Virus record (IMG/VR): IMGVR_UViG_2724679140_000013
Direction: 5' to 3' (one strand)
From: a virus
Lineage: Duplodnaviria > Heunggongvirae > Uroviricota > Caudoviricetes
DNA length: 37,432 nt
Position 1 is the first letter of the stretch, and every line of letters starts with the position of its first letter. The notes under the pieces are model-generated. The model worked only from the letters and a program-made list of their open reading frames with translations. It was not told the DNA's origin and searched no databases. This document shows, in pieces, positions 1,008 through 35,418 of this stretch. The translations under genes were made by a program, and so were the position numbers.

Positions 1008-1394
1008 TTAAGACTTAATCCATCCCATCATCAACATCAGAGATACCGCCGTATTAGAAACAGACTGATTTTGATATACTTTTCTATTCTTTTTTTTATC
1101 TGCGAAAGGCTCAAAGGCCATATCAAGTTGTTTAGTCAATTCCTCTGCCAACAATTTGAGGTCATCCATATTTTTAACTTGTGTAGACAATTCTGGTGTA
1201 AGTCTTCCTTGATTATAAAGTACAGCTATAAAGTCAGCCGAGGTAGCCAATTTGTTTTTATAAGATGCCTTTTGCCACTCAAGGGCGTTTGCCTTATGTA
1301 ATGTTCCACCTTCATACCATTCAGAGGCATAACCATGAGATGCAAAAACAAACAAGATATAAAAAAGGACTAATTTTAAATAATTACGCTGCAT
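1008..1394 (-). CDS. hypothetical secreted protein (N-terminal signal peptide), low-GC cargo
   Basis: 128 aa; hydrophobic N-terminus LKLVLFYILFVFASHGYA then polar mature region; AAGGA SD before ATG at 1394; AT-rich compared with phage core. Confidence 0.6.
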   Translation of the reverse strand: MQRNYLKLVLFYILFVFASHGYASEWYEGGTLHKANALEWQKASYKNKLATSADFIAVLYNQGRLTPELSTQVKNMDDLKLLAEELTKQLDMAFEPFADKKKNRKVYQNQSVSNTAVSLMLMMGWIKS

Positions 1395-1425
1395 ATCATA
1401 TTTCCTTGCATGTTATTTAACGTAT

Positions 1426-2073
1426 TTACACAAAATAAATTAAAAATGTAATCACCATACCCAAAATGAGTCCAACAATGAACACAATCAAAAATTCTTT
1501 AGTATATTCTGTTAATAGTTCACTAATGCAGTGTCTATTTTTAATATTGCCATTGCTCTGAGATATATTTTTATTAGTCTGCTGATCTAACCACGACAAT
1601 GCAGATTGCAACTGAGAACGAGTAAGATCGTTTAAACGGCCTGTACCGAAATTGATATGGCAATATCGAAGAAGTTTTTGTCTAATTTCATTACTTTCAC
1701 TGTTGCGAAGAAGGAGGCTTACAAGTAATTTACAGGCGTCATGATCCTTGTGTCGGTCAAGCATCGCATTGAGAAAGCTAATTGCGGTTGGATACTGATT
1801 CACCGTCATCTTATCGACACTATCAACACCGATTTCAGCATGAAGTTTACGCCAAACAACAAACGATTCTTCCTTGCTGGCATCAACAATCTTGTCAACC
1901 AACAACTTCAGTTGATGTCGCTGAGCCTTAACTAATGGGCGCTCATCAGGCCTACCAGAAGGGATTGCAATATTGACTGTATGCCGATCATCATATCGCT
2001 CTATCTGAATATTCTTTTCGTGGTAATCACGCCCAGCAACGCGATTGTCTGAACCGTTTGAGTTGACCGCCAT
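1426..2073 (-). CDS. hypothetical C-terminally membrane-anchored protein, co-transcribed with repressor
   Basis: 215 aa; single C-terminal TM helix FLIVFIVGLILGMVITFLIYFV; GGAGGTGA SD 6 nt upstream of ATG at 2073, immediately after repressor stop at 2092-2094; low GC. Confidence 0.6.
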   Translation of the reverse strand: MAVNSNGSDNRVAGRDYHEKNIQIERYDDRHTVNIAIPSGRPDERPLVKAQRHQLKLLVDKIVDASKEESFVVWRKLHAEIGVDSVDKMTVNQYPTAISFLNAMLDRHKDHDACKLLVSLLLRNSESNEIRQKLLRYCHINFGTGRLNDLTRSQLQSALSWLDQQTNKNISQSNGNIKNRHCISELLTEYTKEFLIVFIVGLILGMVITFLIYFV

Positions 2074-2091
2074 GTCACCTCCCTGCTAGAG

Positions 2092-2505
2092 CTAACCCTT
2101 AGTTTCGTTATAGTCACGACCAGCAATACGATGGCCCTTGCCAGAAGCTCTTATTGTACCTGGAGCCAAACTACCAGCGGTCAAGGCTGCCAAAGCCGCC
2201 GCCTTAACAGCCAAAGGTGCAGAGCGATATATTTTAATTAGCTCAATCTCATCTTCAGTGGCATTAGGGATGCCATGTGCACGACTACCAGAAAGTATGT
2301 AATAGACATCTACTCCGCAGCGCCTTCCCAAGAGATTCAGCATAGCTGCATCCGGTGTAGTCACCCCTCTTTCATACTTCCCCCAAGTCTTTGTAGAAAC
2401 TTCAAAAATAGACGCCATATCATCCTGAGTCATGCCAGTTTTCTCTCGTTCCTCCCGTAATCGACGTCCAATAATGACACTTAATTCCTCTTTTTCTGTT
2501 GACAT
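2092..2505 (-). CDS. HTH (XRE-family) immunity repressor, C/CI-like
   Basis: 137 aa; HTH segment GMTQDDMASIFEVSTKTWGKYERG; divergent from the early operon; sits between int and early genes as in P2. Confidence 0.8.
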   Translation of the reverse strand: MSTEKEELSVIIGRRLREEREKTGMTQDDMASIFEVSTKTWGKYERGVTTPDAAMLNLLGRRCGVDVYYILSGSRAHGIPNATEDEIELIKIYRSAPLAVKAAALAALTAGSLAPGTIRASGKGHRIAGRDYNETKG

Positions 2506-4861: not shown

Positions 4862-5065
4862 ATGAACAAAAAGACCTGGTTTCGCGCATACATGTGGGCG
4901 CTGGTATGCGTCCTCGTTTCTCTCATTCTGTATGCAGGACTACTCCCCCGAATGATTTCATCAGACAGCTCCTTCTTGGTATTGCTGGGCATTTTCATTG
5001 CCATGCTGTACCCGGCAGGCGTTGTTCGCCTTTTCAGTAAGTACATCAAGGAAATCAAACAATGA
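4862..5065 (+). CDS. small two-TM membrane protein, possible partner of downstream SPFH protein
   Basis: 67 aa; two hydrophobic helices (WALVCVLVSLILYAGLL and FLVLLGIFIAMLYPAGVV); stop overlaps start of next gene. Confidence 0.5.
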   Translation: MNKKTWFRAYMWALVCVLVSLILYAGLLPRMISSDSSFLVLLGIFIAMLYPAGVVRLFSKYIKEIKQ

Positions 5066-5892
5066 AGAAACTCAAACTCTTTCAGATTATCCCGCTTTTT
5101 GCCGCCATCCTGCTGGTTGGTTGCGATCGCGTTGAGCCAGGTAATGTGGGCATCAAAGTCAACAAACTGGGCGACGACAAAGGCGTCGGTGAAGTGGTTG
5201 GCGTTGGCCGCTACTGGACAGGCTGGAATACAGAGGTTTACATCTTCCCGACCTTCAAACAAATGAAGACCTACGATGAGCCGTTCAGCTTTCAGATGAG
5301 TGACGGCACAACCATCGGCTATCACATCGGTGTGGCCTACAAGGTTGATCCATCCAAAGTTACTACAGTGTTTCAGACCTACCGCAAAGGCGTGGACGAC
5401 ATTACCGACACTGACCTGCGCCAGAAGATCGCCGATGCACTCAACCGACTGGCCAGCAAAATGACCACCGATAAATTCATCGACGGTGGCAAGTCTGAAC
5501 TGCTGGATTCAGCACTTAAAGATATTCAGGAAGAGATGACCCCCATCGGTATTCAGGTCATGAGCCTCTCTTATGTCGGTAAACCGGAATATCCGCCAAC
5601 CGTTATCGACAGCATTAACGCCAAAGTCACGGCAAACCAGAAAACCCTGCAACGCGAACAGGAAGTCAAGCAACGCGAAGCAGAAGCCAACATGTTGCGC
5701 GCAGAAGCTGCCGGACAGGCTGATGCCATTCGCACAAAAGCCCAGGCTGAAGCCGACGCCATTCGTTTACGCGGTGAAGCTCTGCGCCAGAATCCCGGCG
5801 TTATGGAGCTGGAAGCAATCAACAAATGGAACGGCACGCTGCCGCAATACATGACCAGCAATACCGCTGTTCCGTTTGTTCCGGTGAAGTAA
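5062..5892 (+). CDS. SPFH/band-7 (HflC/prohibitin-like) domain lipoprotein
   Basis: 276 aa; lipobox LLVGC after signal peptide; SPFH-like core followed by Ala/Glu/Arg-rich coiled-coil (QREQEVKQREAEANMLRAEAAGQADAIRTKAQAEADAIRLRGEA) and C-terminal WNGTLP motif. Confidence 0.75.
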   Translation: MKKLKLFQIIPLFAAILLVGCDRVEPGNVGIKVNKLGDDKGVGEVVGVGRYWTGWNTEVYIFPTFKQMKTYDEPFSFQMSDGTTIGYHIGVAYKVDPSKVTTVFQTYRKGVDDITDTDLRQKIADALNRLASKMTTDKFIDGGKSELLDSALKDIQEEMTPIGIQVMSLSYVGKPEYPPTVIDSINAKVTANQKTLQREQEVKQREAEANMLRAEAAGQADAIRTKAQAEADAIRLRGEALRQNPGVMELEAINKWNGTLPQYMTSNTAVPFVPVK

Positions 5893-6931: not shown

Positions 6932-9754
6932 ATGACGGCAGAGTACATCAGGGACTGGCAACAGCCGCGCCACGCAGTGGGACGTGAAGGAACGGGGATC
7001 CCCGTTCCTGAATCCGCGCTTTCCTCCTGGCTGGATGCCTACCGGGCAGAGAACGAGCGCCGCCAGGAAATGGCTGATGCGGCGTTCTCCGCCACGCCGC
7101 TGGGCAACCTGATTAATAAAAGCCTGGATGCACAGGAAAAACAGGACAAAACCATCACACTGGCAGGAGACGCCAGAAAACAGGTACGCGGTGCGGTGGA
7201 TGAAGCCATGGCCTCGCTGCGCCTGCTGCCGTCCTATCTGCGCGATCCGCTTATTCGCCACCTCTCCTTCCTGCGCAAAAAACAGGAAGCCGATCGCCGG
7301 AAAGGCAAAAAGAGCTGGCAGGCTGAACGCTACGCGCGCGGAACCCTGCGCAAAATATTCGAACGTCTGGACCGCACCGACCACCGCTGGCTGACACCGG
7401 GTTATCGCTCCCTTGCCGGACGCGAACGCCTGGATGATTTGCTTTACCTGCCGCAGCTCAACAAGCACCAGATACAGACGCTGGCCACCATGACGGCGGC
7501 GATGTTCAGCAGCACCTTCGAAAAACTCTGCGATGGCTTTGGCGCGACTGATGGCGAGCTGACCATGGAGGTAACGCTGAAGGCGTATCAGATGCTGGCC
7601 CGCATGGCGTTACACCTGCACGCCATGCCTCCGCATTATGACGCACTGACAACAGACAAAGACCGGAGGAACGAACCGGACACGGAGTTGCTGCCGGGCG
7701 CAATCCTTCGCCTGACCTGTGCGGAATGGTGGAAACGCAAACTGTGGCTGTTACGTTGCGAGTGGCGGGAAGAACAACTCCGCGCCGCCTGTCTGGTTTC
7801 CAGAAAAACATCGCCCTATCTGAGCCAGGACGCGTTAAGCGAGTTTCGAGCACAGCGCGAGAAAACACGCGATTTCCTGAAAAGTTTCATGCTGGAAAAC
7901 GAAGACGGGTTCACGATTGATCTCGAGACGGTGTATTACGCGGGAGTAAGTAATCCGGTTCATCGTAAGGCAGAAATGATGGCCACCATGAAGGGGCTGG
8001 AACTTCTGGCCGAAGCCCGTGGCGACAAAGCGGTGTTTCTGACTGTCACCTGCCCGTCAAAATACCACGCCACAACAGAGAACGGTCATCCGAATCCCAA
8101 ATGGAACGGGGCCACCATGCGCGACTCCAGCGATTACCTGGTTAACACGTTTTTTGCGGCGGTCCGCAAGAAACTGAACCGCGACGGCCTGCGCTGGTAT
8201 GGCATCCGCACGGTGGAGCCTCACCATGACGGCACCGTGCACTGGCATATGATGGTCTTTGCTCATCCGGAAGAAATCGACACCATTGTGTCCCACACCC
8301 GCGATATTGCCATTCAGGAAGATCGTCACGAGCTGGGTGATGATATTACCCCACGCTTTAAGGCGGAGTACGTCGACGGCTCAAAAGGCACACCGACCAG
8401 CTACATCGCCACCTACATCGGGAAAAACCTGGACAGCCGTGCCGTGGATGGCATCGACCCGAAAACGGGCAAGCCACGCGTTGACCACGAAACCGGAAAA
8501 TCAATGGCCGAGAGCGTGGAACGCGCCATCGGCTGGGCGCGCCTTCACCGGGTCCGCCAGTTCCAGTTCTTTGGTATCCCCTCCCGTCAGGTGTGGCGTG
8601 AACTGCGCCGCCTTGCCAGCCAGATGGCTCGCAACCCGGAAGGACCGCAACGGCTGAAGGATGACGCAATGGACGCGGTTCTTGCTTCCGCTGATGCCGG
8701 ATGTTTTGCCACCTACATAGAGAAACAGGGCGGCGTACTTGTTCCACGCAAGGACTACCTGATTCGCACCGCCTACGACCTCGCAGATGAGCTGAACGAT
8801 TACGGTGAACAGAGCGTACAGATTTACGGGATCTGGTCACCGCTCATCGGGGAGTCTTCCCGCGTATGCACGCATCCGGACAACTGGAAGCTGGTAAGAC
8901 GCAAACCGGAAGCGGAAGACAGCGCCCGCGAAAATGGTTTTGACCTTCAGGGCGGCCCTGCCGCCCCTTGGACTCGTGGCAATAACTGTCCCCGTATACA
9001 GGAAACGGGCAACAACGGGACAGAACAGCCGGAAGAACGGCCAGCACCGTGGCCGCAGCTTCCTGACGGCGTTGACGTGAATGAATGGATGCGCTCACTG
9101 AAACGGCACGAACACCGGGCGCTGATGCGTTCGCTGCGTGACAAACAGGCAAAAAACAGCAGTGATGAAATGCAGAACTGGACACAGAGCCGCAAACAGC
9201 CACAGCCTTTGCCTGATAACCACGAGTTACTCGCTAAAGAATGGCGGGAGTCTGCTGAATCTCTCGGCCTGCATATCGGTGAACAGCAGATGCAGCACCT
9301 GTTACGGGGCGGCAGTCTGTACGTTGACGGCAGCATCATTGCACCGCAGGGATTTGAAATTGTACGCAAACCGGATACCCGCCCGGACAGCCGAATCACG
9401 CAGCTCTGGCAGCGCCTGAGCCGTAACCACGGCGTAAGCAGCACGGAGATCCGCCATAACCCGGTCGCCAGCTATCTGGAACAGCTGGGGGCATCAGACC
9501 CCGAAGCCGCCGCACGCCTGGCATCCACACTTCAGCAAGACCAGAACACCATGAAAACACCCGTTACCGTGCTTTCTGACATGCTGCGCGCCATCCGCGA
9601 CGCAGAGCACGCACAGAGAATCAGTGAAACCACTGAACGCGCCCGCCGCAAAGCAGACCTGCTGCGGGGTGGCCTGACCAGTGGAAACAAAAAACAGACA
9701 GAAACGGGATTCACAAATCCCGTAAATGAGCAAAAAACGCGCCGCGATATATGA
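6932..9754 (+). CDS. A: rolling-circle replication initiator (P2 gpA family endonuclease)
   Basis: 940 aa; HUH-type motif EPHHDGTVHWHMMVFAHP and downstream tyrosine motif YIATYIGKN; last early gene as in P2; longer than P2 A (about 760 aa) through a C-terminal extension. Confidence 0.85.
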   Translation: MTAEYIRDWQQPRHAVGREGTGIPVPESALSSWLDAYRAENERRQEMADAAFSATPLGNLINKSLDAQEKQDKTITLAGDARKQVRGAVDEAMASLRLLPSYLRDPLIRHLSFLRKKQEADRRKGKKSWQAERYARGTLRKIFERLDRTDHRWLTPGYRSLAGRERLDDLLYLPQLNKHQIQTLATMTAAMFSSTFEKLCDGFGATDGELTMEVTLKAYQMLARMALHLHAMPPHYDALTTDKDRRNEPDTELLPGAILRLTCAEWWKRKLWLLRCEWREEQLRAACLVSRKTSPYLSQDALSEFRAQREKTRDFLKSFMLENEDGFTIDLETVYYAGVSNPVHRKAEMMATMKGLELLAEARGDKAVFLTVTCPSKYHATTENGHPNPKWNGATMRDSSDYLVNTFFAAVRKKLNRDGLRWYGIRTVEPHHDGTVHWHMMVFAHPEEIDTIVSHTRDIAIQEDRHELGDDITPRFKAEYVDGSKGTPTSYIATYIGKNLDSRAVDGIDPKTGKPRVDHETGKSMAESVERAIGWARLHRVRQFQFFGIPSRQVWRELRRLASQMARNPEGPQRLKDDAMDAVLASADAGCFATYIEKQGGVLVPRKDYLIRTAYDLADELNDYGEQSVQIYGIWSPLIGESSRVCTHPDNWKLVRRKPEAEDSARENGFDLQGGPAAPWTRGNNCPRIQETGNNGTEQPEERPAPWPQLPDGVDVNEWMRSLKRHEHRALMRSLRDKQAKNSSDEMQNWTQSRKQPQPLPDNHELLAKEWRESAESLGLHIGEQQMQHLLRGGSLYVDGSIIAPQGFEIVRKPDTRPDSRITQLWQRLSRNHGVSSTEIRHNPVASYLEQLGASDPEAAARLASTLQQDQNTMKTPVTVLSDMLRAIRDAEHAQRISETTERARRKADLLRGGLTSGNKKQTETGFTNPVNEQKTRRDI

Positions 9755-9799
9755 AGCGCGCATAAAACAGGCAAAAACGGGATTTCAGAATCCCGTAAA
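9690..9799. repeat. two copies of a 37-bp direct repeat, each containing palindrome cgggatt-N5-aatcccg (candidate parC/ParR sites)
   Basis: copy 1 at 9690-9726 (inside 3' end of A), copy 2 at 9763-9799 (36 bp upstream of parM start): aaaacagNcaNaaacgggattNcaNaatcccgtaaa. Confidence 0.45.
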
Positions 9800-9830
9800 C
9801 GATTAATTAATCAACATAAGGAAAAGCGAC

Positions 9831-10790
9831 ATGAAAATTTGTATCGATGACGGCTCCACCAACATCAAGCTGGCATGGACTGAGAACGGCGAACGCCGCA
9901 ACGCCATCAGCCCGAACAGCTTCAAGTCGGAATGGTCTGCGCCGTTCGGTGGAACGCAGCCCGCAAACTACATGCTTGATGGCGTGCGCTATGGTTTTGA
10001 TCCGGTCAGCGATCGCTTTGTCCAGACGACCGACACGCAATACCAGTACAGCGATGTGAATGTCATTGCCATTCATCACGCGCTGGTCAAATCAGGCATC
10101 ACACCACAGGAAGTGGATGTGGTTGTCACCCTGCCACTGAGCGAATATTTCGACACCAACGCACAGCCGGACATGGCCAACATCAACCGCAAAAAAGCAA
10201 ACGTCATGCGCCCGGTGGCGTACCAGAACGGAAAAGCATTCACTATCCGTAACGTACGGGTTATGCCTGAATCCATTCCGGCTGGTTTTAAAGCACTGGC
10301 TGACATGAGTCCGTTTGAATCCCTGCTGATTGTGGATTTAGGCGGAACCACGCTGGATGTGGCAAAGGTTCAGGGACAACTGGCAGGTATCAGCCAGGTG
10401 TTTTGCGATCCACACGTAGGCGTTTCCCTGATGGCCGATGCCGTACTGTCGGTGATGGCCACTAACGGTATGCGTACCAGTCACCACATCGCCAATACCA
10501 TTATCGAACATCGCCATGATGAAGCCTGGCTGCGCCAGCACATCCACAATGACGCGCATTACGCCAGCCTGATGGCGGTTATTCGTGAAAAGGAAGAAAC
10601 ACTGAAACAACGCGTGATCCGCGCGCTGGCGGGTTTTTCGGGTTACGGGCGGGTGATGGTTGTCGGTGGAGGGGCGGAGATTGTGGCACCCGCTATCCGC
10701 GAAGCCTGCGGAGTTAATGCGACTTTCATCGCGGACGGGGTGCCACAGTTTGCTCTGGTTAACGGGCTGTACGCAATGGACAAGGAGTAA
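9831..10790 (+). CDS. parM: ParM/StbA-type actin-like partition ATPase
   Basis: 319 aa; N-terminus MKICIDDGSTNIKLAW and motifs YSDVNVIAIHHAL, IVDLGGTTLD, VMVVGGGAEI closely resemble plasmid R1 ParM as I recall it. Confidence 0.85.
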   Translation: MKICIDDGSTNIKLAWTENGERRNAISPNSFKSEWSAPFGGTQPANYMLDGVRYGFDPVSDRFVQTTDTQYQYSDVNVIAIHHALVKSGITPQEVDVVVTLPLSEYFDTNAQPDMANINRKKANVMRPVAYQNGKAFTIRNVRVMPESIPAGFKALADMSPFESLLIVDLGGTTLDVAKVQGQLAGISQVFCDPHVGVSLMADAVLSVMATNGMRTSHHIANTIIEHRHDEAWLRQHIHNDAHYASLMAVIREKEETLKQRVIRALAGFSGYGRVMVVGGGAEIVAPAIREACGVNATFIADGVPQFALVNGLYAMDKE

Positions 10791-10794
10791 ACCA

Positions 10795-11109
10795 ATGACG
10801 ACACCAACCAGACGGATAAGTTTCTATCTGAAGCCAGCTGCAGTCAAGAGTGAACGGGAAGCGTGTAATTATCTCGACAGCCTGCCAGCCTCCGAACGCA
10901 GCCGCGCGCAACGCGCGGCATTTCTGGCTGGACTGGCACTCATTAAAAACGATCCTGCCTTTGCTTACTGGCTGGCTGAATGGTCAGAGGGGGAAAATAT
11001 GCCTGCCAACAATCACATATGGGGCTGGCATAACAGCGAGCCTGTTGGTTGCAAAAATCAGAATATAAGTCAAATAAAAAAGAATATTCAGGAATTTTTT
11101 CCTGAATGA
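10795..11109 (+). CDS. parR: ParR-like partition adaptor/repressor
   Basis: 104 aa from ATG at 10795 (AGGAG SD 7 nt upstream); RRISFYLKP...LDSLPASERSRAQRAAFLAGLALIKNDP resembles R1 ParR N-terminal RHH region; directly downstream of parM. Confidence 0.75.
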   Translation: MTTPTRRISFYLKPAAVKSEREACNYLDSLPASERSRAQRAAFLAGLALIKNDPAFAYWLAEWSEGENMPANNHIWGWHNSEPVGCKNQNISQIKKNIQEFFPE

Positions 11110-11113
11110 TCAC

Positions 11114-11140
11114 AAAAAGCATGGCTTTCGCCATGCTTTT
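11114..11140. terminator. intrinsic terminator after parR
   Basis: hairpin agcatggc-tttc-gccatgct flanked by A run upstream and T run downstream. Confidence 0.6.
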
Positions 11141-11467: not shown

Positions 11468-11785
11468 TTATGCAACCTGACAGGAATGTTCTGCCGTCGC
11501 AGTAACAACCCCACCGGAATACCCAAACTTAAAATCCCACCCCAGGATGTTTAGCATGATAAACAGTCGATCAATGGTATGATTATCTAACTTACCATTA
11601 ATGATTTCGCTTACTCTTGGTTGGGTTGTTTCCAGCAATTCAGCAGCTTCTCGCTGGGTAAGACCGCGCTCCTGAATCATTTTTCGGATAATAACCATTA
11701 ATTGGGCCCGGATGTGTTTATCACTAGCTTCATTTACAGAGCTACTTGATGACGCATAAGGGTTTTTGACTACGACGAATTCCAT
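11468..11785 (-). CDS. HTH (XRE-type) antitoxin, HigA-like
   Basis: 105 aa; HTH GLTQREAAELLETTQPRVSEIINGK; directly downstream of the toxin gene. Confidence 0.75.
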   Translation of the reverse strand: MEFVVVKNPYASSSSSVNEASDKHIRAQLMVIIRKMIQERGLTQREAAELLETTQPRVSEIINGKLDNHTIDRLFIMLNILGWDFKFGYSGGVVTATAEHSCQVA

Positions 11786-11855: not shown

Positions 11856-12257
11856 CTATCTTAAGCCATTTTTACGACGATACTCCACTAATTGTTTGTA
11901 TCTTGCGGCAGCTGTCTCATATTCTTTTTTTGACACACCATTTGTCTTTTTCTTAAATGTATGAAGTATGTAAACAGACTCCGCAAATTTCGCAACGTAA
12001 ATCATACGATAAGAATCACTACTCTTGATGGTTAATTGCATTGCGTAGCGACCAATCGTTTCCCGCATTGATTTTTTTTGAGCAGGTGGAACCCCCAAGG
12101 CATCATCACCATCCACTGGAAAATCGAAACTGTCGAAAGAATGAGGACAATCGCTCTGCAGTGCAACAAGCTCAAAATTTATCCTTTCTCGAACAGCTTC
12201 AGGATAACTATCAATTTGTTTCTGAATTTTATCATTCCAATATGTGATGTCTTTCAC
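11856..12257 (-). CDS. RelE/HigB-superfamily toxin (Gp49-like)
   Basis: 133 aa; C-terminal signature YRMIYVAKFAESVYILHTFKKKTNGVSKKEYETAAARYK typical of Gp49/HigB-like toxins; GTG start with GAGAGG SD. Confidence 0.75.
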   Translation of the reverse strand: MKDITYWNDKIQKQIDSYPEAVRERINFELVALQSDCPHSFDSFDFPVDGDDALGVPPAQKKSMRETIGRYAMQLTIKSSDSYRMIYVAKFAESVYILHTFKKKTNGVSKKEYETAAARYKQLVEYRRKNGLR

Positions 12258-33715: not shown

Positions 33716-34474
33716 ATGTTCAGTTTATTTTCGTTAACTGCCGGAGCAAATGTGCGCTGGCATGATTTACCTGGTAAAGGTATTCCTGTTGTTTTTATTC
33801 ATGGGCTTGGCTGTTCCTCTTCTTATGAATATCCACGGGTTGTTGCAGATCCTGCATTTGGTGGACAACGAGCGATATTGATAGATCTCCCTGGATATGG
33901 ATTCAGTGATAAGCCTAAAGGATTCGATTACAGCATATCCCATCAAGCTAAAGTTGTTATTGAAGTAGTAGAAACCTTAAATCTCTCACAGTTCCATATT
34001 TATGGTCACAGTATGGGGGGAAGTATTGCGATTGAAGTGGCCAGACAACTACATGAGAGAACAAGAAAGCTTGTGGTTTCTGAGCCTAATTTTCACTCTG
34101 GTGGAGGTACCTATAGCCGTAAGATAATAGAGAAACCAGAAGCAGAGTTTATTTCGCATATATATAATGAATTACTGGAGTGTGAAACATCCCCATGGAA
34201 AGGTGAACTCCAGAATGCAGCCCCATGGGCAATATGGCGAGGAGCCAAAAGTCTGGTTGATGGAACCACTCCATCATGGAGAGATATATTCCTTAATCTG
34301 CCCTGTTCACGTACACTAATTTTTGGCGAACAATCATTGCCAGACAATGATTTCCAGCAAATAAAAGAATCTGGAATATCTGTTGCAATAGTGCCAAACG
34401 CTGGACACTCCATGTCATGGGAAAATCCATCAGCACTGGCCTCAATTTTACATACAGAATTTTATAGAAAGTAA
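33716..34474 (+). CDS. alpha/beta-fold hydrolase (esterase/lipase-like), AT-rich cargo gene
   Basis: 252 aa; nucleophile elbow GHSMGG, N-terminal HGLG oxyanion-region motif; markedly lower GC than flanking phage genes. Confidence 0.8.
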   Translation: MFSLFSLTAGANVRWHDLPGKGIPVVFIHGLGCSSSYEYPRVVADPAFGGQRAILIDLPGYGFSDKPKGFDYSISHQAKVVIEVVETLNLSQFHIYGHSMGGSIAIEVARQLHERTRKLVVSEPNFHSGGGTYSRKIIEKPEAEFISHIYNELLECETSPWKGELQNAAPWAIWRGAKSLVDGTTPSWRDIFLNLPCSRTLIFGEQSLPDNDFQQIKESGISVAIVPNAGHSMSWENPSALASILHTEFYRK

Positions 34475-34827: not shown

Positions 34828-35088
34828 ATGTTTCGTTGTCCGCTTTGTGGCGCATCTGCCCGTATCCGCACCAGTCGTCCGGAAAATGATTCAAACACCG
34901 TGCGGCAAAAGTATTACCAGTGTAACAACCTGGAATGCGGCGTATGCTTCTCAACACTGGAAGCTTTCCATAAATTCACATCAAAACACGCCTCCGGCGT
35001 TCACTCTTCAGAAGGTATCCCGTGGCATGAGCTGCCAGCTTCACACAGGGGAAACAATCAGATGAGTTTGCCTTTACCTCAGAATTAA
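34828..35088 (+). CDS. ogr: Ogr/Delta-type zinc-finger late transcription activator
   Basis: 86 aa; MFRCPLCGASARIRTSR ... YYQCNNLECGVCF (CxxC...CxxC) closely resembles P2 Ogr; AAGGGAGG SD. Confidence 0.85.
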   Translation: MFRCPLCGASARIRTSRPENDSNTVRQKYYQCNNLECGVCFSTLEAFHKFTSKHASGVHSSEGIPWHELPASHRGNNQMSLPLPQN

Positions 35089-35277: not shown

Positions 35278-35418
35278 ATGTCGCAAAAATCGCTTACGGC
35301 CATCACGTTCTGCGTGACGGTAATCCTCATCATCTGGATGCTGCACGGTTCGCTGTGTGAAATACGGATGAGCTTCTGGGGAGCGGAGTTTGCGGCGTTC
35401 TTACAGTGTAAGCAGTAA
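35278..35418 (+). CDS. Hok/Gef-family type I toxin-like small membrane protein
   Basis: 46 aa (below ORF-track cutoff): MSQKSLTAITFCVTVILIIWMLHGSLCEIRMSFWGAEFAAFLQCKQ; N-terminal TM helix and SLCEIR...E.AAF signature of Hok family; AAGGAG SD 9 nt upstream. Confidence 0.6.
   Translation: MSQKSLTAITFCVTVILIIWMLHGSLCEIRMSFWGAEFAAFLQCKQ

Follow-up and report, generated by a model that had tools for sequence, protein, structure and literature searches.

The 37,432-nucleotide (nt) viral sequence of IMG/VR record IMGVR_UViG_2724679140_000013, which we refer to as a whole as the window, carries two genes, parM and parR, directly after the replication gene gpA of a P2-type phage. In the original prediction made for this sequence, these genes and two upstream repeats were read as a complete R1-type partition locus, in the order parC-parM-parR, inside an integrated prophage. 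Our searches revealed that Pfam profiles cover ParM from end to end (StbA_N, 6.9e-82; ParM C-terminal domain, 1.3e-68) and that R1 ParM structures (1mwk, 4a62, and others) match its residues 2 to 316 (E = 1.6e-92). The protein is 46.5% identical to R1/R100 ParM over the full length, and the motifs phosphate-1 (DDGSTNIK), MPESIPAG, phosphate-2 (DLGGTTLD), and adenosine (GGGAE) all align with those of R1. The window thus has the StbA/ParM-family ATPase with intact nucleotide-binding motifs that a type II partition system calls for. ParM scored far under the cut-offs of two further models, the NCBIfam ParM equivalog PRK13917 and PRTRC_D; since these models describe other ParM-like families, their low scores are not counted against the StbA/ParM assignment from Pfam and the PDB. 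We found no disruption of parM, as the full-length open reading frame (ORF) of 319 aa was present in 84 of the 84 loci of our allele survey, which comprised IMG/VR contigs, three genomes, and the window.

The second gene, parR, starts 4 nt past the parM stop codon, has its own Shine-Dalgarno sequence (AAGGAG), and encodes a small ribbon-helix-helix (RHH) protein that matches the ParR-type Pfam model Plasmid_stab_B. Its N-terminal RHH domain is 43.5% identical to that of R100 ParR over 62 aa, and the structure of pB171 ParR (2jd3) matches its residues 6 to 60 (E = 0.0035). When we aligned the protein with ParR of R100 and of four other genera, the only part conserved outside the N-terminal domain was the extreme C terminus (KKNIQEFFPE in the window), where the motif K-K-N-x-x-x-(L/F)-(I/F) aligns across eight ParRs, including that of R100. 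The motif stands at the position of the ParM-binding tail of R1 ParR. The gene just downstream of parM therefore encodes a small RHH adaptor with a C-terminal tail, the other protein of a type II system, and by analogy with R1 this tail may bind ParM. Public annotation labels the two products in the same way, PGAP as "plasmid segregation protein ParM" and "plasmid partitioning/stability family protein" and PHROGs as "partition protein" in both cases. Both protein identifications of the original prediction, an R1-type ParM directly after replication gene A and a ParR-like RHH protein behind it, were borne out by significant profile matches.

Upstream of parM we found two units of a 42-nt direct repeat that are 81% identical, each with a perfect 20-bp palindrome, ACGGGATT-N4-AATCCCGT (Table 1). 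Measured from the parM ATG, the dyads are centred 117.5 and 44.5 nt upstream, 73 bp from each other. Across the 37 kb of the window, the N4 pattern has just these two perfect sites, compared with 0.11 matches expected at ≤3 mismatches; all four ACGGGATT octamers of the window fall within the two dyads, and no further half-sites were found in the window beyond them. The repeats had been predicted to be 37 bp long and to hold a palindrome with an N5 spacer. Two palindrome-bearing repeats are indeed present; their length and spacer had to be corrected, as the N5 form has no match in the window. An R1-type parC, a direct iteron array (10 × 11 bp in R1) that flanks the par promoter, was not found at this position. 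Of the complete R1-type locus, the two proteins and the gene order hold, and the description of the upstream region as parC-like holds only partly.

Table 1. Positions of the features of the window discussed in the text.
Feature	Position	Strand	Remarks
Immunity region	1008-2505	-	137-aa helix-turn-helix (HTH) protein; ORFs of 215 and 128 aa between it and int
SPFH/Band-7 gene	5062-5892	+	within the early operon
gpA, replication endonuclease, 940 aa	6932-9754	+	Pfam Phage_GPA 1.1e-131; RefSeq "replication endonuclease"
46-bp stretch inside gpA	8948-8993		cagggcggccctgccgccccttggactcgtggcaataactgtcccc
Repeat unit 1	9688-9729		contains 20-bp dyad ACGGGATTCACAAATCCCGT at 9704-9723, inside the last codons of gpA
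Repeat unit 2	9761-9802		contains dyad ACGGGATTTCAGAATCCCGT at 9777-9796
parM Shine-Dalgarno sequence	9818-9822		AAGGA
parM, actin-fold ATPase, 319 aa	9831-10790	+	Pfam StbA_N and ParM C domain; PHROG 691
parR, RHH adaptor, 104 aa	10795-11109	+	Pfam Plasmid_stab_B 9.5e-26; PHROG 2515
Hairpin with perfect 11-bp arms	11115-11140	+	AAAAGCATGGC-TTTC-GCCATGCTTTT; inverted repeat directly 3' of parR
Hotspot ORF, 49 aa	11153-11302	-	phrog_33859, function unknown
Toxin-antitoxin-like pair	11468-11785 and 11856-12257	-	directly downstream of parR
Hotspot ORF, 187 aa	12829-13392	+	phrog_5091, function unknown
Alpha/beta-hydrolase gene	33716-34474	+	between tail gene D and ogr
ogr	34828-35088		adjoins hok
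Hok/Gef-family toxin gene	35278-35418	+	46 aa (...SLCEIR...); right prophage end, near attR

Compared with the R1/R100 loci, the window has the same centromere-parM-parR order and identical phosphate-binding and adenosine motifs, and in both, the upstream repeats have a G/C triplet (CCC/GGG) as their recurring core. The repeats themselves are built differently. In R100, parC is made up of 11-bp direct iterons, rich in A/C and each with a CCC core, that stand to either side of a recognisable promoter, whereas the window has two inverted-repeat dyads, the first of them in a coding region, and no consensus promoter. ParR is also shorter than that of R100 (104 versus 117 aa) and has no central segment, and the carrier is an integrating phage instead of a low-copy plasmid. 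With pB171 ParR (StbB, 2jd3), the N-terminal RHH domain is held in common, but similarity elsewhere is low and the centromere is organised differently.

The dyads could be followed into other genera. In the relative of the cassette found in Hafnia, two GGG...CCC dyads lie exactly 73 bp apart, at −120.5 and −47.5 from the parM ATG, and they are kept although a different ORF precedes parM. In the Plesiomonas relative, the two sites are of the form CGGG-N10-CCC(G/A), with a spacing of 72 bp and an almost unchanged distance from the ATG. Because spacing and position are kept in both, in Hafnia even behind a different ORF, the dyads belong to parMR. Across genera only the GGG/CCC ends are kept, and the inner stem positions vary, which favours a protein-binding dyad over an RNA hairpin. 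The dyad region does fold well as RNA (z = −5.2), as any palindrome pair would; we judged the RNA-hairpin reading less likely because the inner stem is not kept and the + strand hairpins are not followed by T-runs. The relatives in Serratia and Enterobacter have another N-terminal ParR strand (NRKISFYLKP, versus TRRISFYLKP in the window) as well as other upstream inverted repeats, consistent with co-variation of adaptor and site. Given the conserved position in other genera, the two dyads are likely to be a centromere with an architecture unlike that of R1 parC.

We then considered how the cassette is placed in the transcription unit. gpA precedes parM in the same early operon, and the gap between the two is 76 nt. 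A scan of the window found neither a consensus sigma-70 promoter nor a + strand terminator between the two genes. Scans of the Hafnia and Plesiomonas loci likewise gave no consensus promoter and no + strand terminator upstream of parM, and the second hexamer of the one weak promoter candidate in Serratia extends as far as the parM ATG, which makes it too near to be of use. Directly 3' of parR is a perfect inverted repeat, which the consensus terminator scan did not call; it is likely a (bidirectional) terminator of the early operon. The simplest reading of these scans would make parM and parR the last genes of the early replication operon (cox...B...A-parM-parR-terminator). Because neither a consensus promoter nor a terminator separates gpA from parM, parMR would be expressed together with the replication genes and would act on extrachromosomal phage circles.

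The replication protein itself is of the rolling-circle type. The Pfam GPA domain spans only residues 179 to 503 of gpA, which also has a weak match to REP_ORF2-G2P. Among the early-region ORFs scanned, a subset of those in the window, this rolling-circle endonuclease was the sole replication protein recognised, and no plasmid-type (theta) replicon was recognised there. P2 gpA rolling-circle replication yields monomeric circles, which serve as packaging substrate; the lytic phase of a phage with P2-type gpA replication therefore includes plasmid-like molecules. As a separate observation, the C-terminal region of gpA, more than 400 aa, has no family match, yet it is constrained (dN/dS, the ratio of nonsynonymous to synonymous substitution rates, of ∼0.21). 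Also within gpA, a 46-bp stretch (Table 1) is ∼91% identical in ∼70 other P2-like phages, including Fels-2 and many Klebsiella and Salmonella phages, the rest of whose gpA has no DNA match to the window. The P2 replication origin, or nick site, is located within gene A, and this stretch is probably the replication origin or nick site of the phage in the window.

The phage that carries the cassette is integrated. The chromosome of Escherichia coli IGC_RcoliRes_1.1 matches the window at 100% identity, and the prophage there has yecA/int at one border and ogr/hok/tRNA-Leu-Cys-Gly/pgsA at the other; the chromosomal match and these borders agree with the predicted setting in an integrated, int-carrying P2-type phage. 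Fourteen phage records (P88 and 13 others, among them 503458, 520873, P884B11, and Citrobacter phiSM) share the DNA from the gpA 3' end through parM and parR at 94 to 97% identity, and parMR is present in 14 of the 14 phage records that have a gpA 3' end of this type. The annotation of P88 shows the same layout as the window, gpA-parM-parR and hok included. With its P2-type gene order and DNA nearly identical to that of P88, the prophage belongs, on sequence grounds, to the P88-like group (genus Xuanwuvirus, Peduoviridae). P88 itself is a mitomycin-inducible, plaque-forming phage (PMC5285337).

Several other features of this prophage were observed outside the cassette. In the immunity region, the 215- and 128-aa ORFs have no family match, and P88 carries a 93-aa C repressor at the corresponding position, so the window looks like a different immunity type on the same phage backbone. 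Two accessory genes stand in otherwise conserved phage modules: an SPFH/Band-7 gene, which P88 also has (annotated there as a lipoprotein), and an alpha/beta-hydrolase gene, which is missing from P88. A Hok/Gef-family toxin gene lies at the right prophage end and is also present in P88, so that parMRC and hok/sok, the two classical stability loci of R1, both have relatives in the phage.

The cassette is common. Among 5426 complete E. coli genomes, parM was found at 1443 places in 1303 genomes, or about a quarter of them, and the matching gpA type was found at 1536 places, of which ∼94% retain parM. In the allele survey, dN/dS was 0.055 for ParM (67 distinct alleles), compared with 0.21 for gpA and 0.31 for the N-terminal 60 codons of parR. 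These data show that the cassette is intact and under strong purifying selection, stronger than that on gpA. ParR occurs in at least three allelic types, with an invariant N-terminal strand and C-terminal tail and a hypervariable linker of ∼25 aa, and the ParM next to these varied alleles stays 97 to 100% identical. DNA identity to some P88-type relatives breaks near position 10862 because the ParR alleles differ in the linker. The pattern suggests recombination or diversifying change that is limited to the ParR linker.

An exact ParM peptide scan of genome contigs recovered three near-identical loci, and more distant relatives were reached through protein search and contig look-ups. The protein search revealed a gap between the P88 cluster (at least 91% identity) and the next relatives (54 to 63%). 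All four relatives examined in that range (Hafnia, Plesiomonas, Serratia, and Enterobacter) have the order gpA-parM-parR-variable genes-portal, sometimes with one or two small ORFs after gpA and with either ogr or portal and terminase after the variable genes, which include, for example, HicAB and a KAP NTPase. The three relatives examined at 49 to 52% identity lie in other contexts: one of conjugative-element type, one of F-like plasmid type, and one on a 60-kb contig beside an integrase-family gene, which we left unclassified. This distribution marks the cassette as an old part of the core of the P88/Xuanwuvirus branch of P2-type phages, passed on vertically, and not as rare cargo. One further match, on a 226-kb contig of the Firmicute Vagococcus sp. 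WN89Y (NZ_JBQPOM010000071.1), is to a ParM that shares 97% identity with the protein of the E. coli prophage; it almost certainly reflects enterobacterial contamination of that assembly.

The variable hotspot between gpA and portal begins only past parR. In the window, it holds, directly downstream of parR, a toxin-antitoxin-like pair, a Gp49/HigB-like toxin of the RelE/ParE family (133 aa) and an HTH_37 antitoxin-like protein (105 aa), in a stretch that differs between related prophages. Two other hotspot ORFs belong to PHROGs of unknown function (Table 1) and have no Pfam or PADLOC match; for the 187-aa ORF, RefSeq gives a shorter product. This setting bears on whether parMR works in the lysogen on targets other than phage circles, be it by incompatibility with or exclusion of plasmids and phages having the same centromere, as part of the defence repertoire of the gpA-Q hotspot, in handling the host chromosome, or with ParR and the dyads acting as a mere regulator. 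The gpA-Q interval is a documented hotspot of defence and accessory genes, toxin-antitoxin genes adjoin parR, and diverse ParR alleles with a hypervariable linker are a pattern frequent in conflict systems. We nevertheless consider a lysogen-phase role highly improbable. Neither ParM nor ParR matches any PADLOC model, and Rousset 2022 put the cassette among those "likely involved in other functions," not among the defence systems. parMR is kept beside gpA, with the ∼94% linkage given above, and the variable genes come only after parR. A purely regulatory role of ParR would moreover leave unexplained why ParM is so strongly constrained and retains every catalytic motif.

Can the cassette serve to maintain the phage as a plasmid? 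The original prediction had raised a phage-plasmid lifestyle, with episomal maintenance alongside integration, and one could imagine that ParMRC lets P88-like phages persist as stable low-copy plasmids, for example where attB is missing or occupied. One observation that fits this idea is PLSDB record NZ_CP148288.1, a circular "plasmid" of 34,461 bp in which a complete P88-like genome has been closed at the int/att junction. The phage also has hok, a second maintenance gene of R1 type, and a P2-like plasmid prophage is known in KS14, which uses ParA. However, of the 1443 places with parM in complete E. coli genomes, 1441 are on chromosomes and two on plasmid records, and the copy in the window lies between yecA and tRNA-Leu. 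A 99.9% identical copy of the 34,461-bp circle is integrated in the chromosome of a sibling strain; the record could be an excised or replicating phage circle caught by assembly, or a rare episomal carrier. The other PLSDB matches are mostly fragments or records between 228 kb and 1.4 Mb in size and not circles as large as a phage genome. A PLSDB query with portal and terminase returned only P88-like records and so gave no parMR-negative comparator. No theta replicon was seen among the early-region ORFs scanned, and the rolling-circle gpA of the early operon should be repressed in a lysogen; KS14, unlike the phage in the window, has a RepB initiator and no tyrosine integrase. A stable phage-plasmid lifestyle is thus not supported, even though circles must form transiently, and we regard a dual lifestyle of this kind as distinctly unlikely. 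A transient episomal role, or one in the replicative phase, is plausible.

Other temperate phages with a plasmid partition module, namely P1 (ParABS), N15 (SopAB), and Burkholderia phage KS14 (ParA), are extrachromosomal replicons with Walker-type ParA systems and plasmid-type replication (PMC7969092, PMC3091744), whereas P88-like phages keep their tyrosine integrase and, in nearly every case counted above, are integrated. Another comparison is with srpMRC of the SXT/R391 integrative and conjugative elements (ICEs), thanks to which the excised, replicating form is lost less often (Carraro et al. 2015, PMC4489591). Like the cassette in the window, it is an actin-type partition system in a normally integrated element. 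It acts on a transient circular form, in an element with rolling-circle-type relaxase replication, and is paired with a toxin-antitoxin system, as is the case in the window. The two differ in that SrpM and SrpR are distant from ParM and ParR, to which the window cassette is a close R1 relative, and in that srpMRC belongs to a conjugative host element and has a demonstrated function, whereas the cassette here belongs to a virus and is known from sequence. A second precedent is AlpAC of the Corynebacterium glutamicum prophage CGP3, which is induced early and without which circular phage DNA is not replicated efficiently (Donovan et al. 2015, PMC4446434). The AlpA/AlpC/alpS system likewise places an actin-like filament former in an integrated prophage, and the sites bound by the co-transcribed adaptor AlpA lie in the system's own upstream region, an arrangement we liken to that in the window. 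AlpC, in contrast, is a distant actin-like protein from a Gram-positive host with another gene order, and ParM of the window is a bona fide StbA/ParM member.

The srpMRC precedent raises the question of whether parMR is purely an anti-loss device, preventing segregational loss of an excised or not yet integrated circle, and thereby reducing curing and abortive lysogeny, with no benefit to lytic replication. srpMRC offers a direct functional precedent from an element that integrates; the prophage has hok and, near parMR, the RelE/ParE-type toxin-antitoxin pair, much as R391 pairs hipAB with srpMRC; and very high prevalence with purifying selection in vertically inherited prophages would also fit. 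In P2-type phages, Cox is required for excision, and the early promoter that drives Cox also sets lytic growth in motion. Given this requirement, a long-lived excised, non-lytic state is not expected. The mechanism also overlaps with the one we favour, only the selected phase being different, and as a separate explanation we find the anti-loss device rather unlikely.

We regard as evenly balanced the proposal that the cassette is a type II ParM/ParR/centromere system, at the distal end of the early operon, that acts on extrachromosomal phage circles. In this proposal, ParR dimers would bind the two CGGG-N10-CCCG dyads just upstream of parM, and the ends of ATP-ParM filaments would be captured through the ParR C-terminal tail, with elongation between two ParR-bound copies as in R1. 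From the operon layout, the substrate would be the extrachromosomal circular phage genome and not the integrated prophage. Such circles would form once infecting DNA has circularised, or once the prophage has been excised and replicated by gpA, and parMR would be made at that time with gpA and B. Sister circles could then be pushed apart, so that replicating and packaging templates are dispersed, and both daughter cells would inherit a copy if division precedes integration or lysis. The phage would remain an integrating prophage and would not become a stable plasmid through the cassette. ParR-dyad binding, filament formation, the timing of expression, and the benefit to the phage are all inferred here. 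Literature searches, whose coverage excluded most subscription journals, did not find a functional study of this cassette, only the two published remarks taken up below.

Four points weigh against this proposal. Within the E. coli clade, conservation of the dyads is not clearly above that of the flanks, the sequences being too similar to discriminate. Two dyads would hold about four ParR dimers at most, compared with the ten iterons of R1, and may be mainly an operator and not a full centromere. Replication and lysogenisation proceed well in the many P2-like phages that lack parMR (such as P2, 186, and Fels-2), which means that a benefit can only be conditional or modest. Finally, the absence of a consensus promoter leaves room for a weak, ParR-regulated promoter that may be active in lysogens, as in R1.

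The locus is less unusual than the original prediction assumed, being common, annotated by PGAP and PHROGs, and noted in two papers. P88 was flagged as a putative phage-plasmid by a hidden Markov model screen (Pfeifer 2021), and the cassette was noted at the P2 gpA-Q hotspot (Rousset 2022), so the observation and the plasmid speculation are already known. What our analysis adds is that the cassette is a lineage-core module, apparently of the early operon, that its two-dyad architecture is kept across genera, and that it is almost exclusively chromosomal. We tentatively suggest, as a possibility short of an even one, that it is a viral genome-positioning machine in which R1-type filaments, co-expression with the replication genes, and a minimal two-dyad centromere would separate and disperse the monomeric circles made by replication, or carry them through a division that comes before integration or lysis. 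If true, this would provide a genetically tractable E. coli case of actin-driven segregation of phage DNA, with a centromere unlike R1 parC.

A cassette so common and so constrained raises the question of what role an actin-type plasmid segregation machine has in an integrating phage. The answer would tell whether active positioning of replicating genomes, as in jumbo phages and prophage CGP3, extends to small temperate phages, and whether there is a hidden episomal phase in a large class of "integrated" prophages. It bears on prophage stability, curing, and the frequency of lysogenisation, as well as on the calling of phage-plasmids from sequence only.

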